From positions 32,001 to 96,000 of the forward strand of contig CAWFJP010000005.1 in assembly GCA_963816145.1 (NCBI GenBank): DNA of 64,000 nt, in the 5' to 3' direction. This stretch comes from an uncultured delta proteobacterium. Lineage in GTDB: Bacteria > Desulfobacterota > Binatia > UBA9968. The notes under the pieces are model-generated. The model did no database searches, was not told the origin of the DNA, and saw nothing but the letters and a program-made list of their open reading frames with translations. Positions 28,346 through 46,269 of this stretch are shown piece by piece (within the stretch, counting starts at the first letter, position 1; every line of letters begins with the position of its first letter). The position numbers were made by a program, and so were the translations under genes.

Positions 28346-28861
28346 TCAGGTTGATTTGCGTCCGAACAGCGACTGTTTGCCGGAAGCATAACCGGTGGCT
28401 TCCAGTCCCCAGCGGACGGCGTCGCGGGTCTGCTCGTTGGTGACGCGCAGCCGCTCAATAAAAATCGTCACCAGCCGGTAGCAAATCTTCGCGGCCATTT
28501 CGGGATGATGCGAAAAAATATCGTGGAAAACGCCGCGGTCAAGTTGCCAGAGGAGCGAGTCGGTTTCGACGTTAGCGGTGGCCGAGCGCGGTGCGTTGTC
28601 GAACAGTCCCATCTCGCCAAAGAAGTCGCCTGGGGTAAACCGCGTCAGCACCATATCGACATCGCCGCTGACATGTTTGCTTACGACCACTGACCCTTGT
28701 TCGACGATATAGAGCGCATCGGAAACGTCCAACTCGCGAAAAATCACCGTGCCGGCGGTGAATTTCTTGGCGATTAGTAACGGCGCCAGAGTCGCTATGG
28801 AATCGGCTTCGAGATCCTGGAAAAGGACGACCTTGTTCAAAATGTCGGGTATGAGTGGCAT
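28346..28861 (-). CDS. Stand-alone cyclic-nucleotide-binding domain protein (no HTH)
   Basis: IFRE.D.SDALYIV..G, phosphate-binding cassette FFGEMGLFDNAPRSATA; 171 aa. Confidence 0.9.
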   Translation of the reverse strand: MPLIPDILNKVVLFQDLEADSIATLAPLLIAKKFTAGTVIFRELDVSDALYIVEQGSVVVSKHVSGDVDMVLTRFTPGDFFGEMGLFDNAPRSATANVETDSLLWQLDRGVFHDIFSHHPEMAAKICYRLVTIFIERLRVTNEQTRDAVRWGLEATGYASGKQSLFGRKST

Positions 28862-31464: not shown

Positions 31465-32079
31465 ATGCGGACTCTACAGATGCTAATTCGATTGGCTCTA
31501 GGTTGCGGCCTCGCGGCTCTGTTGCTCATCGCAGTGCCGACCCCTGGCAGCGCACAGACCGCCAAGGCGACGTTTGCCGGCGGTTGCTTCTGGTGCATGG
31601 AGCCGCCGTTCGATGAACTCGACGGCGTGATCTCGACGACCTCGGGCTACATCGGCGGCAAAACCAAGAACCCGACCTACGAGCAAGTCAGCAGCGGTAC
31701 CACCGGACATGCCGAAGCCTTGCAAGTCGTTTACGATCCCAAGAAGATCACTTACGAGAAATTGTTAGAAGTTTACTGGCGCAACATCGATCCGTTCGCG
31801 GCCGATGGCCAGTTCTGCGATCTCGGCAACCAGTACCGCTCGGCGATTTTTTATCACGACGCCAATCAAAAAAGCGCCGCCGAGAAGTCAAAGAAGGCGA
31901 TTCAAGCCCGTTTCAAACAACCGGTATTGACGGAAATTACCGCCGCCGCGGTCTTCTATCCCGCCGAGGAATATCACCAGGATTACTACAAGAAAAATCC
32001 GGTGCGCTACAAACTGTATTCCCATGGCTGCGGCCGGGCCCAGCGTCTGGAAGAGGTATGGGGCGCGGCGAAGAAGTAA
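31465..32079 (+). CDS. msrA: Peptide-methionine (S)-S-oxide reductase with N-terminal signal peptide
   Basis: FAGGCFWC, GHAE, AEEYHQDYY. Confidence 0.95.
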   Translation: MRTLQMLIRLALGCGLAALLLIAVPTPGSAQTAKATFAGGCFWCMEPPFDELDGVISTTSGYIGGKTKNPTYEQVSSGTTGHAEALQVVYDPKKITYEKLLEVYWRNIDPFAADGQFCDLGNQYRSAIFYHDANQKSAAEKSKKAIQARFKQPVLTEITAAAVFYPAEEYHQDYYKKNPVRYKLYSHGCGRAQRLEEVWGAAKK

Positions 32080-36201: not shown

Positions 36202-36544
36202 GGGCCGACTATAGCGCTTTCGAAAGCGGCGGGGCAACCGGCAGGCAATCAAAGGATCTTTGTTTTAAACGGTTCGCAGACAGAATGGGGAACCGGCACT
36301 TCGATTGGATGTTTTCTCTGAGGACTTTGGCACGCACGAGCTCTCCGGGTCAGCTCTCGCGACGCCGGGCCGGCAAAACTCTAATCAACATTGAGGGCGG
36401 TTCCAAACCGACTCCGGCTGATGACCACAGCCGGGTTACGTGAAAGGGCGTTCGTTATGGTTTTGATGCAGCTACTCAAAGTTTCGCTGATCTGCGAAAC
36501 CGTTAAGTGTTTGATCTCTGCGGGTTCAATTTTGCGAATCGGCG

Positions 36545-36937
36545 CTACTCGTCGGCGATGTCATACAGTGCCTGGAACTTTTCCGCGCTGATGGCGTAGG
36601 CGTCTGTGCCGTCTTGGTTATTAGAGACTAGATAATCACCAGCCTGATAGGCCGTTTCGCCTTCTTTGGTCTTTATTTTTCCAGGCTTGTCGGCGACCTC
36701 GGCCCAAATTGGCGTCGATTTTGTATAAACGCCTGGGCTAACGAACTCGTACGTCCTCGCAAACGATTCCTGCTCTACCGTGTATTTGTCGCCGTTGTTG
36801 TCGACCAGCCAATCGCCGCGCTTGCAGACTTGCCGGCCACCCCATTTATTGTAAACGAACCCTTCGGTGTCGAGGTCCAGTTGAACCGCAGTGACAAAGG
36901 AGGTCGCCTTGCTTTTATGTTTACGTCTAATGGCCAT
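36545..36937 (-). CDS. Hypothetical protein with two tandem PGDYG-like repeats
   Basis: Repeat 1 KWGG..CKRGDWLVDNNGDKYTV..ESFARTYE; repeat 2 TKEG..YQAGDYLVSNN...AYAI..EKFQALYD; GAAGGAG RBS. Confidence 0.65.
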   Translation of the reverse strand: MAIRRKHKSKATSFVTAVQLDLDTEGFVYNKWGGRQVCKRGDWLVDNNGDKYTVEQESFARTYEFVSPGVYTKSTPIWAEVADKPGKIKTKEGETAYQAGDYLVSNNQDGTDAYAISAEKFQALYDIADE

Positions 36938-36970
36938 TTGATGCTCCTTCGACGGTGTGTTCAACCGTTA

Positions 36971-38134
36971 TCATGGCTGGAGGTCGAAGTCGGTCGGAAA
37001 GTGGTGCGCACCGACTTTTGCCGTGCCGATCCATTCGCCGATCTGTTTGAGCCGCGCCATGTTCGCCGGATCGTCCATTTCGTTCAATTCCGCTATCTCG
37101 GCGGGTGACAGACCCAAGCCCAAAGCATCAAGTGTCTCTTGTTTGAGGTCGATGTTGTAACGAAGATAGCTTAGCAGCGGCGCTGGCGTGAGCCGGTCAT
37201 TGCGGAGGTCGCCGATCTCGCCATCGATCATGCGCGCGGTTGGGCTCTGGGACATCCATTGCAGCAGCGTTTCCATCAGAGCTGCGCAATCGTCCATGAG
37301 GGAAAACAGCGCGTTGACGCCGTGCAGCGCGGCTAGGTTGCTGGGCGCCACCGCGGGATCTCGCGAACCGGTTCCCACGGAGGTGAGCAATAGGTTTTTC
37401 TCGCCCACCGGCCAGCCGACGCGATATCCTTCGATCGTGGCGTACATTAGCGCCTGCAGGGCGGGATTGTTGTAGGGGCTCACGCCGCCATCAACAAATT
37501 GTCCCCGGACGGTGTTTTTTCCCGGCGCGGTAATCTCGATGTCCTCCGGTTCAAAATATTTTGGCGCCGCCGTGGATGCGCGTACCAGGCGCCACAGCGG
37601 ATAGTCTTTGTTGGGGATGACTTCGGGTTTCGAACGGGGACCAAAGTATTTGCCCTTGGGATTGTTTCCCAGCGGCCAAGGGCTGCCGGAGTCGAGCCTC
37701 TTGGTAACGATCAACAATCCGGTTTTGAGTTCGGGACTGCCGAGCGTGGTGTGCTCGCCGAAGGTCTCTTTGAGGATGCCGATCAATTCCTGCTCGTCAT
37801 AGAGCGCGCGCAGGTAGCCATCGCGAAGACAACTTTTCTGAAAAACTCGTTGGCCCAAATCGAGATACATGTCGCTGATCGCTTCAACCGTCATGCCGCG
37901 GGCCAGGGCGGCGGCGATGATCGCGCCGGTGGAGGTGCCGGCGATCAAGTCGAAGTAATCGCTAAGGCGAAACCGGTCGTCGCCGCCGTGACGATCTTTG
38001 AGCAGCGCTTCGATCCTTGCCAGAATGCCAAGTGTGAGTATGCCGCGGACGCCCCCACCGTCGAGCGCCAAAATCCGCTTGGGATTGCCGTCCGCGAGAA
38101 AGTGCTCATCGCGAGTTTTTACCTTGTAGTCCAT
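36971..38134 (-). CDS. Patatin-like phospholipase
   Basis: DGGGVRG, catalytic GTSTG, RASTAAP, DGG. Confidence 0.92.
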   Translation of the reverse strand: MDYKVKTRDEHFLADGNPKRILALDGGGVRGILTLGILARIEALLKDRHGGDDRFRLSDYFDLIAGTSTGAIIAAALARGMTVEAISDMYLDLGQRVFQKSCLRDGYLRALYDEQELIGILKETFGEHTTLGSPELKTGLLIVTKRLDSGSPWPLGNNPKGKYFGPRSKPEVIPNKDYPLWRLVRASTAAPKYFEPEDIEITAPGKNTVRGQFVDGGVSPYNNPALQALMYATIEGYRVGWPVGEKNLLLTSVGTGSRDPAVAPSNLAALHGVNALFSLMDDCAALMETLLQWMSQSPTARMIDGEIGDLRNDRLTPAPLLSYLRYNIDLKQETLDALGLGLSPAEIAELNEMDDPANMARLKQIGEWIGTAKVGAHHFPTDFDLQP

Positions 38135-38266
38135 GATCGTCCTCCGCGCTGGCTTCGAGAGCTATATAACCAATCTGGCCGTGAATGTCACTGTGACAAT
38201 GTTACTCGGCGCTCCCGCGGCGCACAAATCGTGGCAGGTGCTGAAGTCTCGCGGATCCGAATATCC

Positions 38267-38366
38267 TCGCCCAAAGGCGCTAAGGCGCAGAGGATCGGCT
38301 AACCAGATATTACCGTCGTACGACTATTAATCTTCCGAACTTCGCGTCTTTGCACCTTTGCGCAAA
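38267..38366. repeat. Palindromic element, family B (CGCAAAG-type)
   Basis: TCGCCCAAAGGCGCTAAGGCGCAGAG ... TTCCGAAC-TTCGCGTCTTTGCACCTTTGCG. Confidence 0.7.
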
Positions 38367-45519: not shown

Positions 45520-46269
45520 TTAGTGACTAGGTAGAGTTCTCAGCCGGGTAAAGAATTCGCCGATGGCGCCATTATGAAGGAAGTCGGCGAGATCGTCGAG
45601 CGGCGTCGGGTCGCGGTTGACAATGGCGAGCAGCGCGCCGCTGCGCTTGGCGATCACCGGGAAAGATGCCGCCGGTTGCACTTGCAAGGACGAGCCGATG
45701 ACGACGAAGACATCGGCTTGCTCGCTCCAGCGTTGGGCGCGCTGCATGGCTTCGACCGGCATCGATTGGCCGAAGGAGATGTTGGCGGATTTGAGAAAAC
45801 CGCTGCAGGCGTCGCAGGTGGGCGTCGGCAGTCCTTCATGCCACTTCTCGTAGACGTCAGAGGGTTGAAAAACTTTGGCGCATTTGAGGCAGGTGACGAG
45901 ACGGTCCGTGCCATGCAGCTCGACCAGGCGCGTCGCCGATGTGCCGGCGAGCTTGTGCAGGCCGTCGATATTTTGCGTGATCAGGCCGAGCAGTTGGCCG
46001 CGTTGTTCGAATTCGCAGATCGCCTGGTGGCCGATGTTGGGTTTGACGGTCTTGAAGAGCTCATAGGTGGCTTTTTTGAGCTGCCAATGCTGCACCCGCG
46101 CAGCTTCACTGGCGAGAAAATCTTGGAACAGCACCGGTTGATATTTCGTCCAGACACCTCCGGGGCTGCGGAAGTCAGGCACGCCGGATTCCGTACTGAT
46201 ACCGGCGCCGGTGAAGAAAACCAGCGCCTCTGACTTGCTCAACCGGCTGGCGAACTCTTCAAGCTTCAC
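45520..46269 (-). CDS. cobB: NAD-dependent protein deacylase (sirtuin)
   Basis: GAGISTESGVPDFR, TQNIDGLH, ELHG, two CxxC, GSSLQV.PAA. Confidence 0.9.
   Translation of the reverse strand: MKLEEFASRLSKSEALVFFTGAGISTESGVPDFRSPGGVWTKYQPVLFQDFLASEAARVQHWQLKKATYELFKTVKPNIGHQAICEFEQRGQLLGLITQNIDGLHKLAGTSATRLVELHGTDRLVTCLKCAKVFQPSDVYEKWHEGLPTPTCDACSGFLKSANISFGQSMPVEAMQRAQRWSEQADVFVVIGSSLQVQPAASFPVIAKRSGALLAIVNRDPTPLDDLADFLHNGAIGEFFTRLRTLPSH

Follow-up and report, generated by a model that had tools for sequence, protein, structure and literature searches.

We describe here a pair of adjacent genes in a 64,000-nucleotide (nt) stretch of DNA, hereafter the window (positions 32,001 to 96,000 of contig CAWFJP010000005.1), from an uncultured delta proteobacterium of the class Binatia, whose 7.8-Mb genome, 99.47% complete, is referred to as G000. 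One gene encodes a patatin-like phospholipase and the other a small protein built of two beta-barrels. As judged from the anatomy of the locus and from the comparative data, the two proteins are a functional pair, and the small protein is what stays constant in a modular family whose killing domains can be exchanged. We infer that the two genes comprise a single operon for an effector and a ligand-sensing regulatory subunit that would switch the lipase on; this reading, which takes in the role in defense, ligand binding and activation, is tentative, its chances being in our estimate somewhat below even. The features on which the argument turns are the following, with lengths in amino acids (aa):

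36971 to 38134 (including the TGA stop), minus strand: gene of the patatin-like phospholipase P0002, 387 aa, recognized by its Pfam, PADLOC and CapV matches.
36938 to 36970, minus strand: spacer between the two genes with the Shine-Dalgarno sequence GAAGGAG (36944-36950), 6 nt ahead of the ATG, as read from the sequence.
36545 to 36937 (including the stop), minus strand: gene of the small, PGDYG-like tandem beta-barrel protein P0001, 130 aa, defined by translation, AlphaFold2 model and internal repeat.
38163 to 38191, minus strand: promoter-like block GTGACA-17 nt-TATATA upstream of the patatin gene, from the intergenic alignment of G000, G019, G010 and G002.

That the patatin is intact, as an earlier annotation made from the letters alone (the sequence-only reading) had concluded from the GTSTG and DGG motifs, is borne out by the profile match and by the invariance of the motifs. 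P0002 scores 102.1 bits against the Pfam profile Patatin (PF01734; cut-off 27.7, E = 5.6e-29), covering profile positions 1-191, and contains GGGVRG (residues 26-31), GTSTG (66-70) and DGG (215-217), that is, the oxyanion motif and the Ser-Asp dyad; GGGxRG, GTSTG and DGG show no variation in an alignment of 12 patatins (A3). The protein is also matched by the PADLOC model PDLC00758 for the phospholipase effector of the cyclic-oligonucleotide-based anti-phage signaling system (CBASS; 1.8e-44), and its nearest solved relative is CapV (8zr9; E = 8.8e-21, residues 20-274). P0002 combines a catalytic domain (residues ~20-274) with a C-terminal region of 113 aa (275-387) that is specific to the subfamily and lies outside the CapV matches. 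Patatin domains are scarce in G000, with only 3 such genes in 7.8 Mb.

The small protein, likewise, agrees with the initial description of 130 aa made of two repeats: homology of its two halves is evident from 33% identity over 36 aa (E = 1e-5 in this single alignment), and the AlphaFold2 model consists of two similar all-beta units (beta5-alpha-beta) with a predicted local distance difference test score (pLDDT) of 93.2 and a predicted template-modeling score of 0.80. The suggested likeness to PGDYG (PF14083), an uncharacterized family of bacteria and phages, is real inasmuch as the repeat GD(W/Y)LV...Y...F..Y is common to both and some relatives of P0001 reach the cut-off of the profile (P0156 with 36.7 bits, as well as the giant proteins P0200 and P0240), but it is weak for P0001 itself, which scores 24.0 bits, under the cut-off of 27, and is related to the family without being called a member, representing a subfamily of its own in which the tandem layout is fixed. 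Families of unassigned function in PHROG also match P0001. The two giant proteins (3138 and 1612 aa, respectively) contain several PGDYG-type repeats, the C-terminal end of P0200 being a Zeta-toxin kinase domain; we presume a resemblance to the polyvalent proteins that phages and conjugative elements encode. Altogether, P0001 has 705 close homologs and, at E<=0.001, 421 representatives in a library of 50%-identity clusters, and the small protein is strongly conserved, with 70-90% identity over many contigs. By eye, it has no signal peptide. Within G000, a second copy of the small gene amounts to just a weak match (E = 0.236) with an internal stop.

Comparison with known structures, which the sequence-only reading had recommended as a check, brought up no nucleotide-sensor fold: Foldseek found nothing in the PDB at E<=0.001 (best E, 0.019), a profile search of PDB sequences with the small-protein alignment A2 gave no match at E<=10, and in an all-against-all structural search (VIA-align 2), where the best Z was 4.5, each repeat resembled generic SH3/Tudor/FeoA-type barrels, the SH3b-type domain of the cell-wall peptidase 2evr (Z 3.8) being among the matches. 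As far as the model goes, these matches are too weak to back any function. The whole tandem fold is common to five predicted viral proteins in BFVD (template-modeling score 0.65-0.76). The sole close homolog in the viral collection, with 50% identity, is found on the viral contig L128 (5001-7697), where a trypsin-like peptidase that contains a collagen-like repeat is encoded 1.2 kb downstream of it. No model of PADLOC (2023 release) matches the small protein or its fusion with SLATT (see below), and we found no publication describing the small protein, a full-text literature search on PGDYG and PF14083 being likewise empty.

The stop codon of the patatin gene (36971-36973) is followed by a gap of exactly 33 nt, where about 33 had been claimed, and then by the ATG at 36937, the most plausible start of the small gene. 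As judged from its sequence, the block GTGACA-17 nt-TATATA may serve as a promoter; a promoter scan did not report it because the rule of the scan requires a T at the last -10 position. The same block precedes the small gene in the relatives G019, G010 and G002, which have no short patatin there. Hence, the patatin of G000 sits exactly between the small gene and the putative promoter. A contig from a soil metatranscriptome (392 nt, 98% identical, 7 differences) covers 36666-37057, that is, the small gene, the spacer and the 3' end of the patatin gene, and other RNA libraries contain pieces of the patatin gene and of the region upstream of it. Since these contigs are assembled and carry-over of DNA is possible, they lend weak support to transcription and to the same gene arrangement in another sample; they cover the operon in part, and the uncovered parts are uninformative. 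The bracketing of the pair by a palindrome (at 38267) and an inverted-repeat segment (at 36265), which had been seen in the letters, did not hold up: at default settings, no inverted repeats were found in either flank, and 6-nt seeds yielded weak ones, namely, a 20-nt pair with 80% complementarity (38269-38288/38344-38363), a 16-nt pair with 75% and a 10-nt hairpin (36481-36500), none of them like the boundary of a mobile element.

The case for a functional pair is made largely outside the genus. Directly upstream of the small gene, patatins of the P0002 subfamily are found at L030 (69% identity), L027 and L041, out of 13 genome loci; the same subfamily precedes the small gene in a metagenome-assembled genome of Rokuibacteriota (69% and 71% identity), in Ramlibacter alkalitolerans and on many metagenome contigs, with similar spacing and in several phyla. 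In the metagenomes, the neighborhoods of the best 80 of 499 confirmed loci were surveyed, 124 neighboring open reading frames (ORFs), no shorter than 110 aa and no farther than 800 nt away, being assigned by Pfam, a local patatin profile and clustering; the tally, compiled by hand from loci that are related to one another, is as follows:

Any patatin: 32 of 80 loci.
Short-type patatin, full gene: 13 of 80, including L043 (identical to the window) and L101 (patatin downstream).
Short-type patatin, partial: 6 of 80.
Short-type patatin, remnant: 4 of 80.
TPR-S-patatin (TPR-S plus a different patatin domain, see below), convergent to the small gene: 10 of 80, L051 being counted both here and as a remnant.
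TIR: 9 of 80.
ThsI-like: 6 of 80.
Nucleoside-deoxyribosyltransferase-like only: 1 of 80.
Caspase or CHAT: 2 of 80.
Union of all these neighbor types, within 800 nt: 45 of 80.

Where at least 1 kb is available on both sides (28 loci), 21 fall into this union. The layouts are diverse: a hydrolase-TPR-S-TIR protein is directly upstream of the small gene at L033, L039, L116 and L119; TIR genes flank the small gene at L034; a fusion of the small domain with SLATT is followed by two TIR genes at L042; and a Tle1-like lipase adjoins the small gene at L037, alpha/beta hydrolases also being among the neighbors. A TIR gene is present at L030, L034, L042, L051, L077-79, L083, L101 and L115, and nothing of conflict type was found at the genome loci L032, L035, L036, L038 and L040. 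Fusions extend this picture. When 38 longer cluster representatives were scanned against Pfam, two were fusions of a patatin with the small domain, namely, P0140, which is 52% identical to P0002 over the full length and has the small domain at residues 429-556, and P0164, which is built like P0140 and is 31% identical to P0002. In seven further representatives, the small domain stands ahead of a DUF4231/SLATT two-helix membrane domain, and single fusions involve a 4HBT thioesterase (P0129), a muramidase (P0123) and the Zeta toxin of P0200. The linkage of patatin and small protein is beyond chance, and the variety of layouts is unaffected by the kinship of the loci. The linked module that had been proposed is, thus, upheld by the recurrence of the same subfamily in several phyla and by the fusions, and both TIR and SLATT, which had been named as partners to look for, were found.

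Several loci deserve separate mention. At L085 (14-1006), the small gene and a portion of the patatin share a single open frame, which may be a natural fusion; at L076 (3797-5071), the patatin frame continues into the small gene; and at L075 (3798-4963), the patatin is distributed over two overlapping frames, suggestive of a frameshift. Outside the patatin/TIR pattern, an M23 peptidase gene lies 18-96 nt downstream of the small gene at L089 and L091, together with a sigma-54 activator, and at L097, L099 and L120 a HEPN protein is encoded upstream of the small gene, with HEPN/nucleotidyltransferase pairs.

At four loci (L041, L117, L094 and L095), patatin and small gene are followed, in this order, by a gene for a TPR-S protein of 470-750 aa. 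The first of these, L041:4746-8429, belongs to Ramlibacter alkalitolerans KACC 19305 (NZ_JAEQND010000002.1) and comprises a P0002-type patatin, the small protein and a 746-aa ThsI-like TPR-S protein; no TIR gene was found within the 12-kb locus. In addition to these four, TPR-S stands beside the small gene at L112 and, fused to a patatin, in G004, G010 and G022. The N-terminal domain of the third-gene protein carries the motif ADLVVAD..N.NV.YELG and shows a weak match to DNPH1-type N-hydrolases (E = 0.056); its model, of moderate quality (pLDDT 61.4), has a TIR/nucleoside-deoxyribosyltransferase fold, the best structural matches being the CMP hydrolase MilB (Z 11.8, root-mean-square deviation 3.1, 135 residues aligned), TIR domains (Z 10-11.6) and nucleoside deoxyribosyltransferases. 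These features match how the Thoeris type VIII effector, ThsI, is portrayed in the available text of Yirmiya et al. (bioRxiv 10.64898/2025.12.03.692087), namely, as a protein consisting of a CMP-hydrolase-type domain and tetratricopeptide repeats (TPR). The same text describes ThsH, the effector of type VII, as SLATT, and states that types VII and VIII respond to canonical cyclic ADP-ribose (cADPR) made by TIR proteins, that the sponges Tad1 and MoTad2 block neither of the two, and that phospholipases are among the predicted Thoeris effectors. A tandem beta-barrel or PGDYG-like component is not mentioned in that text, the supplementary tables of which may list such operons. The recurrent partners of our small protein are the same parts (TIR, SLATT and ThsI-like proteins), whereas the pair of G000 is without both TIR and TPR-S.

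A further comparison is offered by BcTir/Tpr, a two-gene anti-phage system that consists of a TIR protein and a TPR protein with a glycosidase-type N-terminal domain (bioRxiv 10.1101/2023.05.26.542521). The four Patatin-Tpr assemblies noted in the available passages of that paper are similar to the TPR-S-patatin that adjoins the small gene in the genus studied here, whereas no small partner protein is described in those passages; unlike in the ThsI model, signal production is assigned there to the TPR protein. A full-text literature search on PF20308, the TPR-S domain, returned no paper.

These comparisons suggest a scenario for how the operon might work. The CapV-like P0002 would degrade membrane lipids, and the cytoplasmic 130-aa protein with its two SH3-like barrels would be the constant ligand-binding module of conflict systems, probably of anti-phage abortive infection, in which the killing parts (patatin, SLATT pores, TIR, TPR-S-fused hydrolases, caspases) can be swapped. 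Most likely, the small protein would bind the trigger and then release or activate the lipase. The trigger, in turn, would probably be a nucleotide of the cADPR kind made by a TIR or NADase enzyme, because the neighbors are TIR, SLATT and ThsI-like proteins with a CMP-hydrolase-type domain and TPR-S. A more specific proposal, which we regard as unlikely, if worth entertaining, is that the tandem beta-barrel is a receptor for TIR-made cADPR-type signals that would switch on both patatin and SLATT, with the phage look-alikes acting as sponges or decoys in counter-defense against Thoeris VII/VIII. As to G000, since it has no TPR-S gene and no TIR gene near the pair, the pair would be either minimal or a relic: the genome holds only the effector half, and either the signal would be supplied in trans from one of five TIR genes elsewhere, or the pair would be a still-intact remnant of a larger ancestral island. 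The choice left by the sequence-only reading, a minimal system or a fragment of a larger one, is supported in that related loci do carry the TPR-S and TIR genes.

We favor a sensor because the small domain is fused to effectors, as is usual for sensor domains, because its sequence is independent of the type of partner, and because it keeps the company of TIR, SLATT and ThsI-like proteins. The independence of the partner follows from two observations: across members of the genus, the small protein remains 78-85% identical beside patatins that share just 22% identity, and, on a quick tree of small proteins (104 rows), the partner type changes 26 times, the minimum possible being 4 and the shuffled mean 48.2. 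A sequence of this kind would fit ligand binding better than a tailored inhibitor of a protein. Such an inhibitor, similar to an antitoxin or immunity protein and directed at the lipase, is one form that a negative regulator could take, the other being a host sponge that would bind the signal and guard against self-killing. The position of the small gene directly downstream of a toxic enzyme is what either form would predict, as are the persistence of the small gene where the short patatin has been lost, reminiscent of orphan immunity genes, the higher conservation of the small protein compared to the effector and, for sponges, the viral proteins of the same fold in BFVD. However, one inhibitor is unlikely to fit partners as structurally unrelated as patatin, TIR, SLATT, caspase and hydrolases, covalent fusions to effectors (P0140 and those with SLATT) are typical of sensor domains and not of antitoxins, and the sequence of the small protein does not track the type of partner, so that we consider negative regulation quite unlikely. 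A prediction of the complex between patatin and small protein (score 0.00, no controls) carries no weight for or against.

If the small protein is a sensor, the cue might still be something other than a nucleotide, for instance a phage protein, or a component of the envelope or a lipid that would target or gate membrane effectors. Many of the partners do have to do with lipids or the envelope (patatin, the Tle1-like lipase of L037, alpha/beta hydrolases, SLATT, the 4HBT thioesterase of P0129, the muramidase of P0123 and the M23 peptidases of L089 and L091), the repeats resemble SH3-like barrels, including the SH3b-type domain of 2evr, and G000 has no signal generator in cis. This view has to cope with the lack of a signal peptide (by eye) in the small protein, with the 70-90% conservation, a degree not usually expected of a protein that senses fast-evolving phage proteins directly, with the TIR and ThsI-like neighbors, which point to nucleotide signaling, and with the fact that the fold matches are too weak to back any function; on balance, a non-nucleotide cue appears unlikely, although it deserves consideration.

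The situation within the genus is different. We searched 40 relatives, 24 from the same genus (among them the unpublished genome G005) and 16 others. The small gene was found in 6 of the 24 and in none of the 16; a P0002-like patatin was found in 8 of the 24, in seven of them, including G005, at 62-64% identity and in G008 at 43%. The two sets do not overlap, and none of the six small-gene loci holds a short patatin. Thus, co-conservation of the pair, an expectation of the sequence-only reading, was not seen inside the genus, where the small gene lies in a conserved housekeeping synteny (3-hydroxyanthranilate dioxygenase, variable segment, small gene, isochorismatase, major facilitator superfamily transporter), which is part of what that reading had said would speak against it. 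In the comparison of the genus, the patatin at this locus is an extra 1.4 kb present in G000 only, and no patatin remnants were found between the isochorismatase and the small gene at the same-genus loci L009-L014 at E<=0.01. In G004, G010 and G022, the small gene is located tail to tail with a gene for a protein of 664-747 aa in which TPR-S, the sole match to this domain in each of the three genomes, is joined to a different patatin domain. The latter has just 22% identity with P0002, so that the same small gene has come to stand beside two unrelated patatins. Downstream of the small gene of G000, the 300-nt spacer contains no remnants of the TPR-S-patatin and resembles none of the relatives' spacers in nucleotide sequence. 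In G021, the gene next to the small gene (L011:7318-7932) ends 8 nt from it, tail to tail, and encodes a protein of 204 aa that has no Pfam match and whose N-terminus, SVFINCPYD..., resembles, by eye, the TIR/deoxyribosyltransferase-type motif of ThsI-like proteins.

A tree of 22 patatins, with one row from the unpublished G005, unites all seven stand-alone patatins from the genus (support 100/99); the clade that they form is nested within patatins with linkage to the small gene and does not include the patatin of G000. In the small-protein tree, the G000 copy nests in the clade of the genus, whose members mostly pair with TPR-S-patatin. Near the base of this clade, the small gene of the metagenome locus L051 (572-3960) is surrounded by a TIR gene, a TPR-S-patatin-like gene and two fragments of the short patatin, one on each strand. 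This island may resemble the ancestral state or be rearranged, and it hints that an originally larger island was reduced by differential loss. These data bear on the possibility that the adjacency in G000 is accidental, such that a stray patatin has separated a housekeeping small gene from its promoter, without any cooperation of the two products. The restriction of the pair, within the genus, to G000, the conserved place of the small gene between the isochorismatase and 3-hydroxyanthranilate dioxygenase genes and the position of the G000 patatin outside the genus clade would all be explained in this way. Yet, distant phyla show this pairing again, with the gene order unchanged and the spacing similar, and it also occurs in the form of fusions; furthermore, patatins are rare (3 in G000), and relatives from the genus have a second, unrelated patatin beside the same small gene; accident is, in our view, highly improbable.

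A number of observations weigh against the operon of an effector and its sensor as we propose it. In the genus, seven genomes with patatins of 62-64% identity have no small gene, and therefore the lipase can exist without the small protein; conversely, six relatives retain the small gene without a short patatin, and in G019 and G021 no patatin adjoins it. TPR-S (PF20308) has 0 matches in the 99.47% complete G000, and the window contains no TIR gene, the five TIR_2 matches of the genome being on contigs C4, C31, C15, C14 and C3. The fold of P0001 matches no known nucleotide sensor, its best PDB hit being a generic SH3/Tudor-like one at Z 4.5. No conflict-type neighbor was found at 35 of the 80 metagenome loci, mostly on short contigs, or at 7 of those 28 that have 1 kb or more of sequence on each side, L089 and L091 with their M23 peptidases being examples of loci without such a neighbor, and the phylogenetic kinship of the loci means that the counts overstate the number of independent events. 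Finally, in the available text on Thoeris (10.64898/2025.12.03.692087), the type VII effector is described as a SLATT-domain protein, with no mention of an additional domain.

The genes around the pair in the window are those of ordinary metabolism and transport, in line with the initial impression that the pair is unrelated to its catabolic surroundings. Among the ORFs from ~20.6 to ~52.1 kb, neither PADLOC nor Pfam gave a match to a cyclase (CD-NTase/SMODS), whose absence had been claimed, and there are no other PADLOC defense matches in this range except for one cyclic-nucleotide-binding protein. The latter (28349 to 28861, minus strand, 171 aa, ~8 kb from the pair; Pfam cNMP_binding, 3.2e-23) matches the PADLOC models of the Pycsar TIR effector and cyclase at 1e-9 to 1e-5, evidently via the cNMP domain alone, and its gene adjoins that of a fatty-acid desaturase. 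On the other side, ~7 kb from the pair, a SIR2-family protein (45523 to 46269, minus strand, 249 aa; Pfam, 7.2e-42) has no PADLOC match and a size that fits a housekeeping deacetylase. The relation to CBASS is, accordingly, one of likeness in the effector: P0002 and CapV, the effector of CBASS activated by cyclic GMP-AMP, have homologous catalytic domains with the same Ser-Asp dyad and oxyanion motif, and the expected outcome, cleavage of membrane phospholipids, would be the same. The differences are that there is no CD-NTase cyclase near P0002, that P0002 does not reach the cut-off of 200 of the NCBIfam equivalog CBASS_lipase (114.7 bits, model positions 2-218 of 317), that its 113 C-terminal residues are unmatched and that it has a separate small partner gene; we know of no separate small partner protein of CapV.

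The pair of G000 illustrates an exchange of effectors at a fixed locus where the small gene itself is retained. If the small protein is, indeed, a sensor or regulator, it would represent a new, widespread module of bacterial immune signaling, with 421 representatives (E<=0.001) in several phyla, would provide the uncharacterized PGDYG-like proteins of bacteria and phages with a function, and would add lipase effectors to the cADPR-based Thoeris systems put forward recently. With the full operon of patatin, small protein and ThsI-like protein present in the cultured Ramlibacter alkalitolerans KACC 19305, this idea is directly testable.

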